Origin: Rhodothermales bacterium
GTDB taxonomy: Bacteria; Bacteroidota; Rhodothermia; Rhodothermales; VXPQ01
Direction: 5' to 3'
DNA length: 64,000 nucleotides
NCBI GenBank assembly: GCA_040904565.1
Contig: JBBDTI010000031.1
Location: 9,766 to 73,765 of the forward strand
Part shown: in pieces, positions 43,990-48,186 of the stretch
Position numbering within the stretch: position 1 is the first letter of the stretch
Layout of the letters: each line of letters opens with the position of its first letter
The notes under the pieces: model-generated
Databases searched by the model: none
Seen by the model: the letters and a program-made list of their open reading frames with translations, nothing else
Told to the model about the DNA's origin: nothing
Made by a program: the position numbers and the translations under genes

Positions 43990-44634
43990 ATGTTCGACTT
44001 CTCGGAAGCGCCGATCACGCTGATCCTGATCCTGGTCAACGTGCTGGTCAGCGGATACGCGTTGTTCTTCGATGAGTCGCTGATCGATCGGCTGGCGTTC
44101 AAGCCGCGGGAGATCCTTCGGCAGGGGCAGTACCGGCGTTTGTTCACGGCCGGATTCGTACACGTAAGCGGATCGCACCTGCTCTTCAACATGATCACGC
44201 TCTATTTCTTCGGGCGTCCGATGGAGCAGTACGTGCTGGGGCCCGGCAAATTTCTGCTGCTCTACGTTGGATCGGAGCTGGCAGCACACGCCCTCTCGCT
44301 TGTCCTGCATCGGGATACGGCGGGATACGCGGCCGTAGGAGCGTCAGGCGCCATCAGCGGCGTCCTCTTCGGATACTGTCTGTTCGCCCCGCTCCAGCCG
44401 ATCTACCTGTTCTTCGTGCCCATCGGCATTCCCGCGGCGCTCTTTGCCGTGGGGTACGTCTTCCTTTCGATGTACGCCATGCGGCGGGGGCGGGAAGGAG
44501 GACGCTCCATGACGGGCGGCATCGCGCATGAGGCGCACCTCGGCGGGGCGTTCGGTGGCCTGTTGCTCACGGTACTGTTAGAGCCGCGCGCCATCTCCAT
44601 CTTTCTCCAGGAACTGAGTCGCATCGGGATGTAG
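43990..44634 (+). CDS. rhomboid family intramembrane serine protease
   Basis: Six TM segments. Motifs: YRRLFTAGFVHVSGSHLLFNM, the catalytic GASGAISG, and AHLGGAFGG. Confidence 0.85.
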   Translation: MFDFSEAPITLILILVNVLVSGYALFFDESLIDRLAFKPREILRQGQYRRLFTAGFVHVSGSHLLFNMITLYFFGRPMEQYVLGPGKFLLLYVGSELAAHALSLVLHRDTAGYAAVGASGAISGVLFGYCLFAPLQPIYLFFVPIGIPAALFAVGYVFLSMYAMRRGREGGRSMTGGIAHEAHLGGAFGGLLLTVLLEPRAISIFLQELSRIGM

Positions 44635-44890
44635 CTCGATCTAAAACCGTTATTGCACACGGCGGTTGACCCATGTATCCAAGGGGTTACGCGAAAAGCA
44701 CCGTTATTGCCACTTGCGATTAGATCGTGGCGGATCTATATTAAGATCACCTCATGCGCCTGGAGACCCATTCACGTGGGGACCATCAGTCGCTTCAACG
44801 TGGGCTTCAAGAAGCTCGGTCTGGTGGGCAGGCCGGGCTTTTTGGTCTCCGGCCCTCGGATGCCCAGCTTGTCAACACGCCGCCGACGTC

Positions 44891-44928
44891 TTGTGGATAT
44901 CGTGTTAGTCAATTGTGGATTAGTCGTG
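44891..44928 (+). repeat. two direct repeats TTGTGGAT(n2-4)TCGTG just upstream of the strong promoter
   Basis: ttgtggatatcgtg (44891-44904) and ttgtggattagtcgtg (44913-44928), with starts 22 bp apart. The repeats end 12 bp before the -35 hexamer at 44940. The core TGTGGAT resembles a DnaA-box core. Confidence 0.5.
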
Positions 44929-44939
44929 GCGCGATTCTC

Positions 44940-44968
44940 TTGACGTGCGCACCCTTCCACGCTATAAT
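44940..44968 (+). promoter_or_regulatory. consensus sigma70-type promoter (TTGACG-17-TATAAT)
   Basis: TTGACG at 44940-44945, an exact 17-nt spacer, and a perfect TATAAT at 44963-44968. No ORF with coding character follows it. Confidence 0.6.
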
Positions 44969-44974
44969 AAGCCC

Positions 44975-46009
44975 AGTGCCTGACGGCACTGTTCCTTGAC
45001 GCGACTGAAAACTCTGGGCTGCATGAGGATGCCCGTGCACTGATCGTAAGATCAGTCAGGAGATGCGGCAATCGAACGGCAGGCGGTGCCGGTTGGTCTG
45101 AAGGGGTTCGCCCTCGCAGGCTTTCTGGAACGGCTGCCGGTTTGGATGCATGCGTATCCATTCGCTCACAGACGCGCTGCTTCGGCAGTTAAGTGTGAGT
45201 CGGGTGGAATCGCCAAGCCTTCTCGTCGTGGACCGTGGCTTCGGCCGCCGGTCCCCTCGGTTTCGGCCTTCGGGTCGGCCGAACGGAAGCGACGGATGGT
45301 GCGCATCAGTCCCGCGCGATGCTATGAAGCGATCGGCTGAAAAGCCGTCTGCGGAGAGCGGCGTTTGTTGATGCAGTGAGCTGGAGGATGTTCGGTGGAG
45401 GCCGGACGCGTGATGAAACCGTCTGTCGAAGGACGACGGTGGAACGTGTCCCGGTCGGTGAAGCCGGTATTCGCCACGTGCTCGCCGAGAGCGGTTTGTG
45501 ACGAAGCGGCCGTACCTTTGGGTGCGACGTGGATCCAACCGCTCGATGACGCGGCCAACCGCTCGCTGCGGAGAACGACGTTCGACGAACCAGGCGGTGC
45601 CGGATCGACTCCGGAGCACGGACGCTCTATGACGCGACGGCAGCAATGCCGCCGCTGAGAGCCGACGTGTGATGAAGGAGTGGATCGGCCAGATCAGCCG
45701 GGCGTGGAGCGCGAGCGAGAAAACTGAACGTGCGGGCAATCAAAGGTCCGTGGCTGCTAAACCGTCTGCCCATGCGGTTTAGACGTATCGCTGCCGGGAA
45801 ACCGACAGCCGTGCGCACGGCCACCAGTGCCGGTCTTCGTACCGGCAGGAGAGTTGGCCTCCCCACCGATGGTAGGTTGCTGTTTCGGCAGCGAACTGCA
45901 TCGAGGGAGGCCGGTCGCGCTGAGGGATAATTACATGGCGCACTCCGGATGCGCCGCACGATTGCACACGATTCTCTGATGCCGCCTGCTCTCGCAGACG
46001 GCATTTTTT
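44975..46009 (+). ncRNA. candidate large (~1.03 kb) structured non-coding RNA of unrecognised family
   Basis: The unit is bounded by the consensus promoter (44940-44968) and an intrinsic terminator (45979-46009), and only junk ORFs occur in all six frames. It has many short perfect hairpins capped by stable tetraloops. UUCG loops: CUGC-UUCG-GCAG 45177-45188, GUGGC-UUCG-GCCGC 45235-45248, GGCC-UUCG-GGUC 45265-45276, GCUGU-UUCG-GCAGC 45879-45892. GNRA loops: ACUGAUC-GUAA-GAUCAGU 45039-45056, CGGCA-GCAA-UGCCG 45638-45651. There is also an 8-bp enclosing helix, GGCCUCCC 45856-45863 paired with GGGAGGCC 45905-45912. The ends are approximate. Confidence 0.45.
45979..46009 (+). terminator. intrinsic (Rho-independent) terminator
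   Basis: AUGCCGCCUGC-UCUC-GCAGACGGCAU forms 10 bp with one C/A mismatch, followed by a U-tract running through 46009. It lies 80 nt upstream of the next gene start at 46090. Confidence 0.7.
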
Positions 46010-46089: not shown

Positions 46090-46740
46090 ATGTCCCTCGC
46101 CGCGCGCGTCCACGTCATCGTCGTCAACTACCAGACTCCGGACCTGCTGGATACGGCCGTGCGGTCGTTCGTCGAGCACTACCCGGACGTTCCCCTGCTG
46201 ATCGTCGACAACGGGTCCCGCGACGCGTCACGAGACGTCATCGAGACACTGCATGCTGACCTTGCGAACGTGTCGTCCCTCCAGTTGGAGGAAAACCGCT
46301 ATCACGGGCCGGCCATGGACCTGGCCCTGCGGCACGTAGATGTCGACTACGTGTTTTTGCTGGACAGCGACACGAAGACCATGAGGGGAGGTTTCCTCGA
46401 GGAGATGCTGGCGCGATCCGAGGAGCCGAACGTATACGGTGTCGGAAAGATCGCGGAGGTAAACGAACGTGGATTTGCCGCGACACGGGGCATACCCGTG
46501 CTCGTGAGCGCCTACATGCTCATCGATCGAGAACGCTATCTCGACCTTCCGCCGTTTATTCACCACGGTCTTCCCGCCCTTCAAAACTTTCGCGCGGCGG
46601 CCGAAGCAGGATACCGACTCGAACCCTTTCCCGTAGACGAGTATATCGAGCATTTCGGACGGGGGACGGCCGAGCGGTACGGATACGGGTTGGGCTGGAA
46701 GGGGCGCCTCGATTACCTGCTCAACAAGCTGGGCTTTTAG
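46090..46740 (+). CDS. glycosyltransferase family 2
   Basis: VHVIVVNYQTPDLLDTAVRSF...LLIVDNGSRD...FLLDSDT is the GT-A/GT2 N-terminal pattern with a DxD-like motif. Confidence 0.8.
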   Translation: MSLAARVHVIVVNYQTPDLLDTAVRSFVEHYPDVPLLIVDNGSRDASRDVIETLHADLANVSSLQLEENRYHGPAMDLALRHVDVDYVFLLDSDTKTMRGGFLEEMLARSEEPNVYGVGKIAEVNERGFAATRGIPVLVSAYMLIDRERYLDLPPFIHHGLPALQNFRAAAEAGYRLEPFPVDEYIEHFGRGTAERYGYGLGWKGRLDYLLNKLGF

Positions 46741-46824: not shown

Positions 46825-48186
46825 TCACCACGGCAAACTCGAGGTCGGGCGGCCTACCACCCCCTCCATTTCGCGGAATTCCTCGGCATACCGTTTCACC
46901 TCGTCACGTTCGATCACACCCCGTTCGGTCGCGTACGCGTCGATGAGGTCTGCCGGCACGCGTTCGAAGATCTCGGTTCTAACATCTACGCGGTCCGACA
47001 CAAGCCCGACGCTGGAACGATCCGCTCGTTCTTGCTCGGCAGCGACATCTCCGAACCGGCCGTCAAGTTCTCGCTTTACGGCGACGTCCTCGGAGCGGTC
47101 GTCACGTTCTTGCTTCTCGGACGCCTCCCCGGAGCGATCCGATTCATTCGTCGCGAGCAGCTTGTCGAGGGCAACCGCTACATAGACAGGCACGCCCCGA
47201 CCGCGTGCGACGAGTGCGGCCAGGCGTGAGCCTACCTTGTTGACGATCGATCCATCGGGGAGCAGGGTATCGCACCCCAGCAGCACGGCATCGAAGGGCG
47301 GTGCCGAAGCCATGGACGCGTCGGGGATGAGCGTCACGTCGAGCCGTGCCCGATCGAGCCGTCGCGCTACCTCCACACCTTCGCCACCCGGAAGCGAGAC
47401 GGCCACGACGACGCGTGCCCGCGTCGACAGGAGTGCATCCAGCACCGTTCCCGAACGGGAGACCGTAAGCACCGTTGCGCCGCCGATGAACTCGGCTGCC
47501 GCACTCGATGCAGCGTGGTCGGACGAAACGGCTTCCCGAAGCACGGTATGAATACACGCGGCCCGTTCGCCGCCGTCCGGCATCGACGTCAGGCACCGAC
47601 GCATCGCACGGTTGATCCGGTTCCGGACGGCTGCCATGGACGGACGAGCAGCGACCAGTTCCTTCGCGAGCGCTCTAATATGAGTCCGGGAGGAGGCCTC
47701 GGCCGCGCGATCGCGGAGAACTTCGAGCGCCCGCAACGACAGGTAGGCCGAACCGTGTTCACGATCCGTTCGCACGTCAGCTACCGACGGCGCGACGGCC
47801 CGGTACGACCGCCACAGCTCCGGAACGGTCGCCCGCTGCAGTATGTCGGGCGGGGCCGCCCATTCCCCCTCGGTCGACTCTTCATTGAGCGCGGGCTGTC
47901 GCCGGCGCCCGTCGAAGAGGTACGGATGCACCGTCCACGCGATGCCGAGTTCTTTGTCTTCGACGGAGAAGGGGTTGCCGCGTCGGACGAGTTCCACGTC
48001 GGTGAACCCCGTTTCCTCTTCGATCTCGCGACGAGCCGCTTCGTCCGGGTCGCCTTCGGCATGCCCGGCTACGGCTCCCCACCTTCCGGGATAGGACCCC
48101 ACCTCGCTGCTGCGTCGCAGCAGCAGGACCTCGGCCTCGGCTCGAACGAAGCACGTTACGACGTGCCTGACTTCAAGATCGACCAT
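46825..48186 (-). CDS. fusion protein: N-terminal NUDIX hydrolase + C-terminal eIF-2B alpha/beta/delta-family (ribose-1,5-bisphosphate / MTR-1-P isomerase-like) domain
   Basis: The N-terminus has a Nudix box, GAVAGHAEGDPDEAARREIEEETG. The remainder matches the IF-2B family layout (ARPSMAAVRN..., TVLTVSRSGTV, LLGCDTLLPDGSIVNKVGS, VPVYVAV, ...FERVPADLIDAYATERGVI), with an acidic insertion before the last strand block. Confidence 0.8.
   Translation of the reverse strand: MVDLEVRHVVTCFVRAEAEVLLLRRSSEVGSYPGRWGAVAGHAEGDPDEAARREIEEETGFTDVELVRRGNPFSVEDKELGIAWTVHPYLFDGRRRQPALNEESTEGEWAAPPDILQRATVPELWRSYRAVAPSVADVRTDREHGSAYLSLRALEVLRDRAAEASSRTHIRALAKELVAARPSMAAVRNRINRAMRRCLTSMPDGGERAACIHTVLREAVSSDHAASSAAAEFIGGATVLTVSRSGTVLDALLSTRARVVVAVSLPGGEGVEVARRLDRARLDVTLIPDASMASAPPFDAVLLGCDTLLPDGSIVNKVGSRLAALVARGRGVPVYVAVALDKLLATNESDRSGEASEKQERDDRSEDVAVKRELDGRFGDVAAEQERADRSSVGLVSDRVDVRTEIFERVPADLIDAYATERGVIERDEVKRYAEEFREMEGVVGRPTSSLPW

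Follow-up and report, generated by a model that had tools for sequence, protein, structure and literature searches.

A candidate large structured noncoding RNA built on paired K-turns, and a companion small RNA, in a Rhodothermales locus

The stretch of DNA analysed here, called the window below, comprises 64,000 nucleotides (nt) from a Rhodothermales bacterium (GenBank assembly GCA_040904565.1, contig JBBDTI010000031.1, positions 9,766 to 73,765), and all positions are counted from its first letter. Between a rhomboid gene (43990-44634) and a GT2 gene (46090-46740), the window contains a gap of about 1.45 kb in which two noncoding RNA genes can be recognized, namely, a companion small RNA (sRNA) of about 95 nt at 44746-44843 and a large structured RNA of 1035 nt at 44975-46009. 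Both lie on the plus strand, as do all RNA features given below. Wherever upstream sequence is at hand in related loci, the gene order is purQ, rhomboid, small RNA, and large RNA, and GT2 lies 3' of the large RNA in most of them. A first-pass annotation, made from the sequence of the window, had proposed a candidate novel large structured noncoding RNA in this gap. That proposal is borne out by conserved transcription signals, a covarying fold, and the lack of a coding signal, none of the sequence-based checks named with it spoke against it, and we conclude that the locus is a two-gene noncoding RNA module. Three features come on top of the proposal: the K-turn array in the center of the large RNA, its modular variation in size, and the companion sRNA.

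Judging by its signals, the large RNA (44975-46009) is a separate, independently signalled transcription unit, with its 5' end placed from the -10 hexamer and its 3' end placed from the terminator. The promoter singled out in the first-pass annotation, TTGACG-17-TATAAT (44940-44968), agrees with the consensus at 11 of 12 positions, and all 15 full-length homologues keep both hexamers in the form TTGAC[GC]-17-TATA[AC]T, with a spacer of variable sequence. The predicted transcript starts with AGUGCC and ends in a terminal hairpin with a U run in every full-length homologue. In the window, this intrinsic terminator, which had likewise been annotated as a hairpin plus U tract, spans 45981-46009 (RNAalifold pairs 45981-46004, followed by a U6 run ending at 46009). 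It forms helix 38 of the consensus structure described below, with nine pairs, two of which changed on both sides, and it has the same place in all homologues; a C.A mismatch in the stem hid it from a simple terminator scan. The GC skew is +0.08 to +0.18 in every composition window across 45000-45899, and in the flanking genes it lies between about -0.17 and +0.12. Upstream of the -35 hexamer, a direct repeat, TTGTGGA (44891-44897 and 44913-44919, a 22-nt spacing), is kept between the window, L003, L008, and the long-form loci, while short forms carry TGTTAAT...TTGTGAA in its place. This repeat may be an UP element or a binding site for a regulator.

The large RNA lies on the same strand as GT2 and ends 80 nt before its start, and GT2 is the next gene in most long-form loci, as would be expected if the element were a cis-regulatory leader, or long 5' untranslated region, of GT2. 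However, a strong terminator is conserved between the two, the 5' and 3' ends of the RNA pair together as in stable RNAs, and 1 kb is far longer than any known leader. At locus L006, moreover, other genes stand downstream of the large RNA, on the opposite strand, and the element is therefore not a leader of GT2. We regard a leader as very improbable; the first-pass annotation had itself named a GT2 5' untranslated region as grounds for abandoning its proposal, and the conserved terminator and the gene content of L006 rule it out.

The gap had also been described as lacking a credible open reading frame (ORF). ORFs are in fact present, among them one of 227 amino acids (aa) on the minus strand at 45056-45739, but none of the larger ones matches Pfam, and no frame is kept among homologues. 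A decayed or unannotated coding gene could claim as its evidence these long minus-strand ORFs and the ORFs reported by a gene caller in L004, L006, and L008. Nevertheless, the coding-potential check suggested with the first-pass annotation revealed no conserved frame: the longest ORF shifts frame and strand from homologue to homologue, few indels are divisible by 3 (1/16 to 5/26, for the window against six other long or intermediate copies), and the mismatch rate by position modulo 3 is flat (0.338, 0.372, and 0.339), indicating no three-base periodicity. As little speaks for a member of a known RNA family so diverged that Rfam failed to detect it. At the gathering threshold, Rfam 15 has no match anywhere in the 64-kb window, whether to RNase P, tmRNA, SRP, 6S, group I/II introns, OLE, GOLLD, ROOL, raiA, HEARO, or riboswitches. 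In E-value mode over the gap, only chance-level matches appear (E values of 0.32 and 4.1), the better of which, to M23, scores 21.5 bits against a threshold of 41.2. A tRNA/tmRNA scan found none, and no earlier description of the large RNA was found in the literature searched. Either form of this alternative, missed gene or missed family, is hardly credible. A hammerhead reading of the CUGA..GA strings was dropped because no Rfam ribozyme matched. The large RNA is thus noncoding, belongs to no known family, and constitutes a new RNA class. Descriptively, it can be placed among the large ornate bacterial noncoding RNAs, since the predicted transcript exceeds 500 nt, has its own signals and a covarying multidomain structure, and is noncoding.

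Homologues were sought in the neighborhoods of rhomboid homologues, in GTDB species genomes by use of an invariant 20-mer, and in metagenomes by use of a 5' block. The element occurs in 17 further contigs, all of which are Rhodothermales metagenome-assembled genomes or metagenome contigs. Homologous regions of the kind that the first-pass annotation wished to see compared therefore exist, and in them conserved blocks are separated by covarying helices. Long forms measure 919 to 1035 nt (six copies), L024 has 727 nt, L022 has 707 nt, and short forms have about 545 nt (seven full copies). Four more GTDB genomes match the 20-mer (from Syntrophales, Streptomyces, Sulfurovum, and Clostridia), which is about the number expected by chance, and show no further likeness to the RNA. 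Because the metagenome scan yielded only four extra loci, the family is rare, and because viral contigs scanned with an invariant 18-mer gave 0 matches, there is no phage link. In relatives L005 and L007, whose rhomboid proteins are 70 to 71% identical, neither the large RNA nor the sRNA is detectable.

Support for a conserved fold comes from a consensus structure of 238 pairs, computed by RNAalifold from seven long or intermediate copies that are 62 to 74% identical to the window copy. Across these seven sequences, 92.9% of the cells are paired, versus 33 to 44% when partners are slid by 1 to 3 columns. The covariation check of the helices that had been called for gives 72 pairs changed on both sides, about double the 35.7 ± 3.9 obtained in column shuffles (0/500 of which reach 72), and the slid controls give 13 to 23. 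Folding energy also favors the plus strand (-508.7 versus -428.6 kcal/mol), as does the folding z-score of the central 405 nt at 45313-45717 (-3.9 versus -2.35). The hairpins listed in the first-pass annotation are all in place, including four with UUCG loops (45177-45188, 45235-45248, 45265-45276, and 45879-45892), two with GNRA loops (GUAA at 45039-45056 and GCAA at 45638-45651), and the GGCCUCCC/GGGAGGCC helix that encloses one of the UUCG hairpins.

The consensus model shows the large RNA folding into a closed body around a near-invariant core. This core gives rise to a variable domain of hairpins and to a long arm, entered through a K-turn, that branches into the 74- to 79-nt arms described below. 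The first ~60 nt pair with three segments toward the 3' end, at 45731-45749, 45850-45855, and 45914-45927. This 5' part of the core (44975-45037, helices 1 to 6), of which all 63 nt are 100% identical to L003, begins with a P1 hairpin (44975-44990), followed by the 5' strands of a closing helix of 14 pairs (44992-45005 with 45914-45927), a long-range helix AACUCU/AGAGUU (45010-45015 with 45850-45855), and a second long-range helix (45016-45037 with 45731-45749). Embedded in it are two blocks with complementarity to the sRNA, GCGACUGA (45001-45008) and GCAUGAGG (45021-45028). In the 3' core (45731-45927), the 3' strands of the long-range helices, including AGAGUU, and of the closing helix are accompanied by an invariant hairpin at 45757-45782, whose 10-nt loop is UCUGCCCAUG, by a GAAA hairpin, and by the GGCCUCCC/GGGAGGCC helix. 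Because the core helices are almost invariant, their support consists mainly of one-sided changes; in short forms, these helices seem, by inspection, to show A-U/G-C/G-U variation. Between the two parts of the core, the variable 5' domain (45039-45308) holds UUCG- and GNRA-capped hairpins (helices 7 to 13), in which several pairs changed on both sides, and short forms have a single UUCG hairpin instead. The block GCAUGAGG could also pair with CC-CAUGC of the invariant loop (45769-45775) through 7 bp with a bulged A, giving a possible pseudoknot or kissing contact between two invariant segments.

The remaining domain, 45313-45717, is assigned nine kink turns (K-turns) among the internal loops of the consensus structure. 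A K-turn consists of a three-nucleotide bulge followed on its 3' side by G.A and A.G pairs, with a regular canonical (C) helix on its 5' side (PMC4316175); the helix beyond the G.A pairs is the noncanonical (NC) helix. The bulged and nonbulged strands lie, respectively, at 45323-45328 and 45706-45708 in KtA, 45584-45589 and 45353-45355 in KtB, 45367-45372 and 45570-45572 in KtC, 45457-45462 and 45397-45399 in KtD, 45412-45417 and 45441-45443 in KtE, 45545-45550 and 45486-45488 in KtF, 45500-45505 and 45531-45533 in KtG, 45671-45676 and 45613-45615 in KtH, and 45628-45633 and 45656-45658 in KtI. All nine loops have a 6x3 or 3x6 geometry, to which 56 of the 63 instances in the seven sequences conform. 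The bulged strand reads NNN-GA-N (typically GAUGAA), and the opposite strand reads N-GA (GGA, CGA, or UGA). The tandem G.A/A.G pairs are almost universal among the 56 instances (G1b in 55, A2b in 54, A1n in 55, and G2n in 52). Position -1b:-1n is mostly C:G (37 instances) or else U:G (14), with G prevailing at L1 (47) and U at L3 (45). The 3b:3n position is A:G in 29 instances, U:G in 10, C:C in 6, and A:C in 5, and it is a Watson-Crick pair in only two. The C and NC helices that flank the loops (consensus helices 14 to 31) covary, as real helices do. In primary sequence and loop geometry, therefore, the nine loops show every feature by which K-turns are recognized. They share with Kt-7-type K-turns the three-nucleotide bulge, the 3' G.A and A.G pairs, C:G at -1b:-1n, A:G at 3b:3n, and G at L1 (PMC4316175, PMC5061560). 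In contrast to such single motifs, nine copies are predicted here within ~400 nt of one bacterial noncoding RNA, and no natural RNA with such an array was found in the literature searched.

Except for KtA, the K-turns come in pairs (B-C, D-E, F-G, and H-I), the members of which have their bulges on opposite strands and share a common C helix. The strands of this helix are 10 to 13 nt long, mostly 11 to 12, and the distal NC hairpins comprise 22 to 25 nt, usually with a GNRA loop of the GAAA type. The arms D-E, F-G, and H-I are 74 to 79 nt long, and their geometry is constant while their helix sequences differ; in an alignment of 12 arms, 17 of 26 pairs changed on both sides, versus 10.8 in shuffles. 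Arm D-E (45391-45468) is composed of an outer NC helix, a K-turn, a C helix of 12 to 13 nt, a second K-turn, and an NC hairpin of 23 nt with a GAAG loop, and F-G (45480-45556) is its paralogue. These two score 63.4 and 68.9 bits, respectively, with a covariance model, R1, that was built from D-E and F-G arms only. Arm H-I (45607-45682), with C-helix strands of 12 nt, a central 4x4 loop, and a GCAA-loop tip, is the sole arm type found in all size classes. R1, although built without any H-I arm, recovers the H-I arms of short and intermediate forms (E values of 1.6e-7 to 2e-4), and it detects a single arm in each short form but several in the long ones. Outside the large RNAs, it finds nothing below an E value of 0.01 in the 64-kb window, the flanks of the RNA loci, or six RNA-free loci. 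The 4x4 loop in the C helix of H-I pits GGAC (45620-45623) against CGAC (45663-45666), and most homologues retain GA on each of the two strands, which hints at tandem sheared G.A pairs or another noncanonical motif.

The number of K-turns differs among homologues. Long forms have nine positions, some of them degenerate in one lineage (e.g., KtC in L021), L024 has four K-turns, and L022 and the short forms keep KtA, KtH, and KtI. At the B/C position, L024 has a simple local K-turn hairpin, CUGU-GGA-GAGC-UUU-GCUC-UUU-GAA-GCAG. We infer that the arms are modules gained or lost in evolution, giving rise to RNAs with 3, 4, or 9 K-turns. In long forms, the KtB/KtC strands are nearly self-complementary (GAGCGxCGUUx). 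Their long-range pairing, which alignment pair 420:619 favors, would enclose arms D-E and F-G, and the changes seen in L023 are compatible with this pairing and with a local one. Such dual pairing could make the site a conformational switch or a trans-pairing site. Two other readings of the repeats were set aside. An arrangement in which all repeats form self-contained local hairpins, with the NC stem proximal, was replaced, as the covariation fits nested double-K-turn arms at most sites. A GGA sponge of the CsrB/RsmZ type was also considered; the repeat sits in internal loops, often with C or U as its first base and always with GA after it, as suits a K-turn, and the CsrA-site reading was rejected because of these CGA and UGA variants.

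What the K-turns might do is suggested by their 3b:3n position. According to published rules, G at 3n or C at 3b permits folding in Mg2+ only, and a Watson-Crick 3b:3n pair needs protein; A:G is the best case, typical of protein-independent K-turns such as SAM-I and Kt-7, while the K-turns of U4 (3b:3n of G:C) and of box C/D need more than metal ions to fold (PMC5061560). Applied to the 56 instances, the rules predict autonomous folding for at least 37, and the arms would therefore be rigid, self-folding building blocks. Alternatively, the large RNA could be a scaffold or sponge that assembles or titrates a K-turn-binding protein, its number of sites tuned by arm duplication. The loops are uniform and box C-like, with a bulged strand of C-GAU-GA and U at L3 in 45 of 56, and a varying number of repeats is typical of titrating RNAs. 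Also, the bacterial L7Ae homologue YbxF/OapC binds a K-turn in OLE RNA (PMC9723947), and L7Ae still binds all 3b:3n variants (PMC5061560). On the other hand, the 3b:3n spectrum resembles that of SAM-I and is the opposite of that of U4 and box C/D. Further, no conserved neighboring gene for an RNA-binding protein was found in the RNA loci, and no L7Ae-like gene was found in the 64-kb window or the loci, where tblastn with L7Ae/YbxF/YlxQ queries, a weak test confined to these sequences, gave nothing below an E value of 0.9. We consider such a protein-centered role conceivable, if rather unlikely.

The similarity to box C/D sRNAs, which combine a C/D K-turn with a C'/D' K-loop, goes beyond the single loop. 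In both cases, there are two K-turn-type motifs per ~75-nt unit, with ~12 nt between the motifs, and xGAUGA and xGA of the arms resemble box C (RUGAUGA) and box D (CUGA), respectively. However, the order of the elements is permuted in the arms (xGA, spacer, GAUGA, hairpin, xGA, spacer, GAUGA), their 11- to 12-nt spacers lie on the C-helix side and pair together with no guide left free, A:G stands at 3b:3n where box C/D sRNAs have U:U, and the bacterial host offers no Nop5/fibrillarin context. Membership among box C/D sRNAs was rejected, given that the spacers pair as a C helix and the element order differs. A closer architectural counterpart is the synthetic double-K-turn duplex of Huang and Lilley (PDB 4CS1), in which two Kt-7-type K-turns likewise lie on opposite strands about one helical turn apart and which adopts a two-fold symmetric horseshoe (PMC5058347). 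In the synthetic unit, the K-turns are joined via NC helices of 10 bp, whereas here they are joined via a C helix of 11 to 12 nt, often with a small central internal loop.

Synthetic horseshoe units assemble into closed objects (PMC5058347), and homo-oligomeric cages or dimers, held together by kissing loops and A-minor contacts, are known among the large ornate bacterial RNAs (PMC12286853). The large RNA might accordingly be an RNA-only oligomer like ROOL, GOLLD, and OLE, with its K-turn arms and palindromic segments making the intermolecular contacts. Candidate palindromes exist in the GCAUGC-type loops and in the self-complementary GAGCGxCGCUC C-helix strands, and the KtB/KtC strands, being able to pair locally or at long range, could in principle also pair in trans. 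Intramolecular helices account for the covariation, however, and we judge oligomerization of this sort quite unlikely.

The second gene of the module, the companion sRNA (44746-44843, with ends placed from its signals), has a promoter of the form TTGCGA-17-TATATT (44714-44742), which is TTGCG/TTGCA-17-TATCTT-like in homologues, and a terminator hairpin at 44818-44839 followed by a U run. Upstream of it stand two CCGTTATTG boxes 54 nt apart (44647-44655 and 44701-44709), the second of which abuts the -35 hexamer. They are the only matches in the 64-kb window, where 0.19 are expected, and across loci the box occurs upstream of the sRNA only; it is probably a regulator (transcription factor) site. 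In E-value mode over the gap, Rfam has no match to the sRNA. The sRNA is present in 15/15 loci that have the large RNA and enough upstream sequence. In the short-form locus L019, an insertion of 2.1 kb separates the two RNAs, both of which are kept, indicating that they are two separate genes. Within the insertion, at 3248-5064 of L019, lies a cassette of an AAA_21/AAA_15 ATPase (397 aa) and a DUF4276 protein (208 aa) that looks like a defence-type insertion.

Pairing between the two RNAs can be inferred from complementarity of their invariant blocks, as assessed by exact-complement counting. The sRNA block CCUCAUGC (44750-44757) is complementary to GCAUGAGG in the large RNA core, and UCAGUCGC (44786-44793) is complementary to GCGACUGA, with an extension to 10 to 12 bp in L008, L021, L022, and L024. 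The third sRNA block, UGGGCA (44825-44830) in the terminator loop, is complementary to UGCCCA (45767-45772) in the 10-nt loop of the large RNA. Five of the 10 6-mers that are invariant in 15 copies of the sRNA have a complement among the invariant 6-mers in the large RNA, versus 0.085 expected; of the remaining five, four belong to the terminator, and one, ACCTCA, overlaps block 1 with its first base unmatched. All invariant sRNA blocks outside the terminator are thus complementary to invariant blocks of the large RNA. Two complementary stretches of at least 8 bases fall within the first 60 nt of the large RNA, a result reached by 0.2% of sRNA shuffles, and the first two sRNA blocks are ordered as expected for an antiparallel bipartite duplex. 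The GCGAC target shares bases with the 5' strand of the closing helix, so that sRNA binding would be incompatible with closure.

Taking these observations together, we propose, with a probability of roughly one in two, that the arms fold by themselves into rigid modules, from which a stable particle is built, and that the core docks the sRNA as a decoy or partner, docking being perhaps coupled to opening of the closing helix. The arms would determine what shape and valency this particle, made of RNA or of RNA and protein, takes on, and the near-invariant core would be its functional center. Since three core segments (GCGACUGA, GCAUGAGG, and the loop UGCCCA) match the three sRNA blocks, docking would be expected to occur at three points. 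It would compete with the 5'-3' closing helix of the large RNA itself, and the pair might in this way control the amount of free sRNA or the conformation of the large RNA. A protein scaffold or an oligomer would each be compatible with such docking. A bolder version, which we think unlikely, is that the locus encodes an RNA nano-architecture. Double-K-turn corners would fold the particle, alone or as an oligomer, and the sRNA would open, close, or assemble it by invading the closing helix and kissing the 10-nt loop. If true, this would be an RNA-only two-component machine (a switch, cage, or ribozyme) without a known counterpart.

Several points weigh against the decoy-or-partner proposal. The ends of the large RNA are predictions from its transcription signals, and the K-turns were assigned from sequence and secondary structure only. 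The covariation counts come from only seven long or intermediate sequences, whose alignment also served to predict the structure. KtB and KtC could form two local K-turn hairpins (45347-45378 and 45564-45593) instead of pairing at long range. In helices 2 to 5, no pair changed on both sides, and in helix 6 one did (in L022); as the closing and core helices mostly vary one-sidedly, structural support for competition between docking and closure is weak. The complementary blocks of the two RNAs are all invariant, so there is no covariation between the RNAs, and each proposed pairing block could be conserved for another reason. Finally, the very uniform sequence of the K-turns (L1-L3 of GAU, box C-like) could reflect one common protein partner.

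Known pairs in which one bacterial transcript acts as a sponge or decoy for an sRNA include SroC with GcvB and the 3'ETS-leuZ with RyhB and RybB. As in these pairs, a conserved 5' sRNA seed is complementary to a conserved site on another noncoding transcript. The putative sponge described here differs in being a 1-kb, highly structured RNA with three complementary sites, the gene for which is syntenic and co-inherited with that of the sRNA.

Bacterial RNAs that are both large and highly structured are rare, and the discovery of each (OLE, ROOL, GOLLD, and raiA) opened new biology or structural principles. The large RNA resembles OLE, ROOL, GOLLD, raiA, and HEARO in its size class, its own promoter and terminator, its intricate conserved structure, and its narrow lineage distribution. 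With OLE it further shares the presence of a K-turn, which in OLE is bound by YbxF/OapC (PMC9723947). It differs from all five in matching none of them by sequence or structure, in coming from the phylum Rhodothermota, in being dominated by repeated double-K-turn arms, in having a dedicated partner sRNA, and in lacking matches among viral contigs. It would be the first large ornate RNA from Rhodothermota. As far as the literature searched goes, it would also be without natural precedent in having a body made up of arrayed, paired consensus K-turns, which only synthetic RNA nanotechnology has explored so far. The system is also tractable, given its uniform arms, natural versions with 3, 4, and 9 K-turns, and a co-inherited sRNA with three complementary blocks. 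Such a system would lend itself to studies of K-turn geometry in large folds, the duplication of RNA modules, and mutual regulation of two noncoding RNAs, and at ~330 kDa, the large RNA is a good target for cryo-electron microscopy.

Two observations concern the surroundings of the module. Four metagenome or Logan contigs break within the locus, L001 (end 6787), L002 (end 4056), L004 (end 4625), and L025 (end 1640), with break points where the sRNA starts or within the large RNA; these breaks may reflect strain-level variation of the variable and arm regions. Downstream of GT2, at 46825-48186 on the minus strand, a gene for a 453-aa fusion of a NUDIX domain and an IF-2B family domain is syntenic in the long-form loci.

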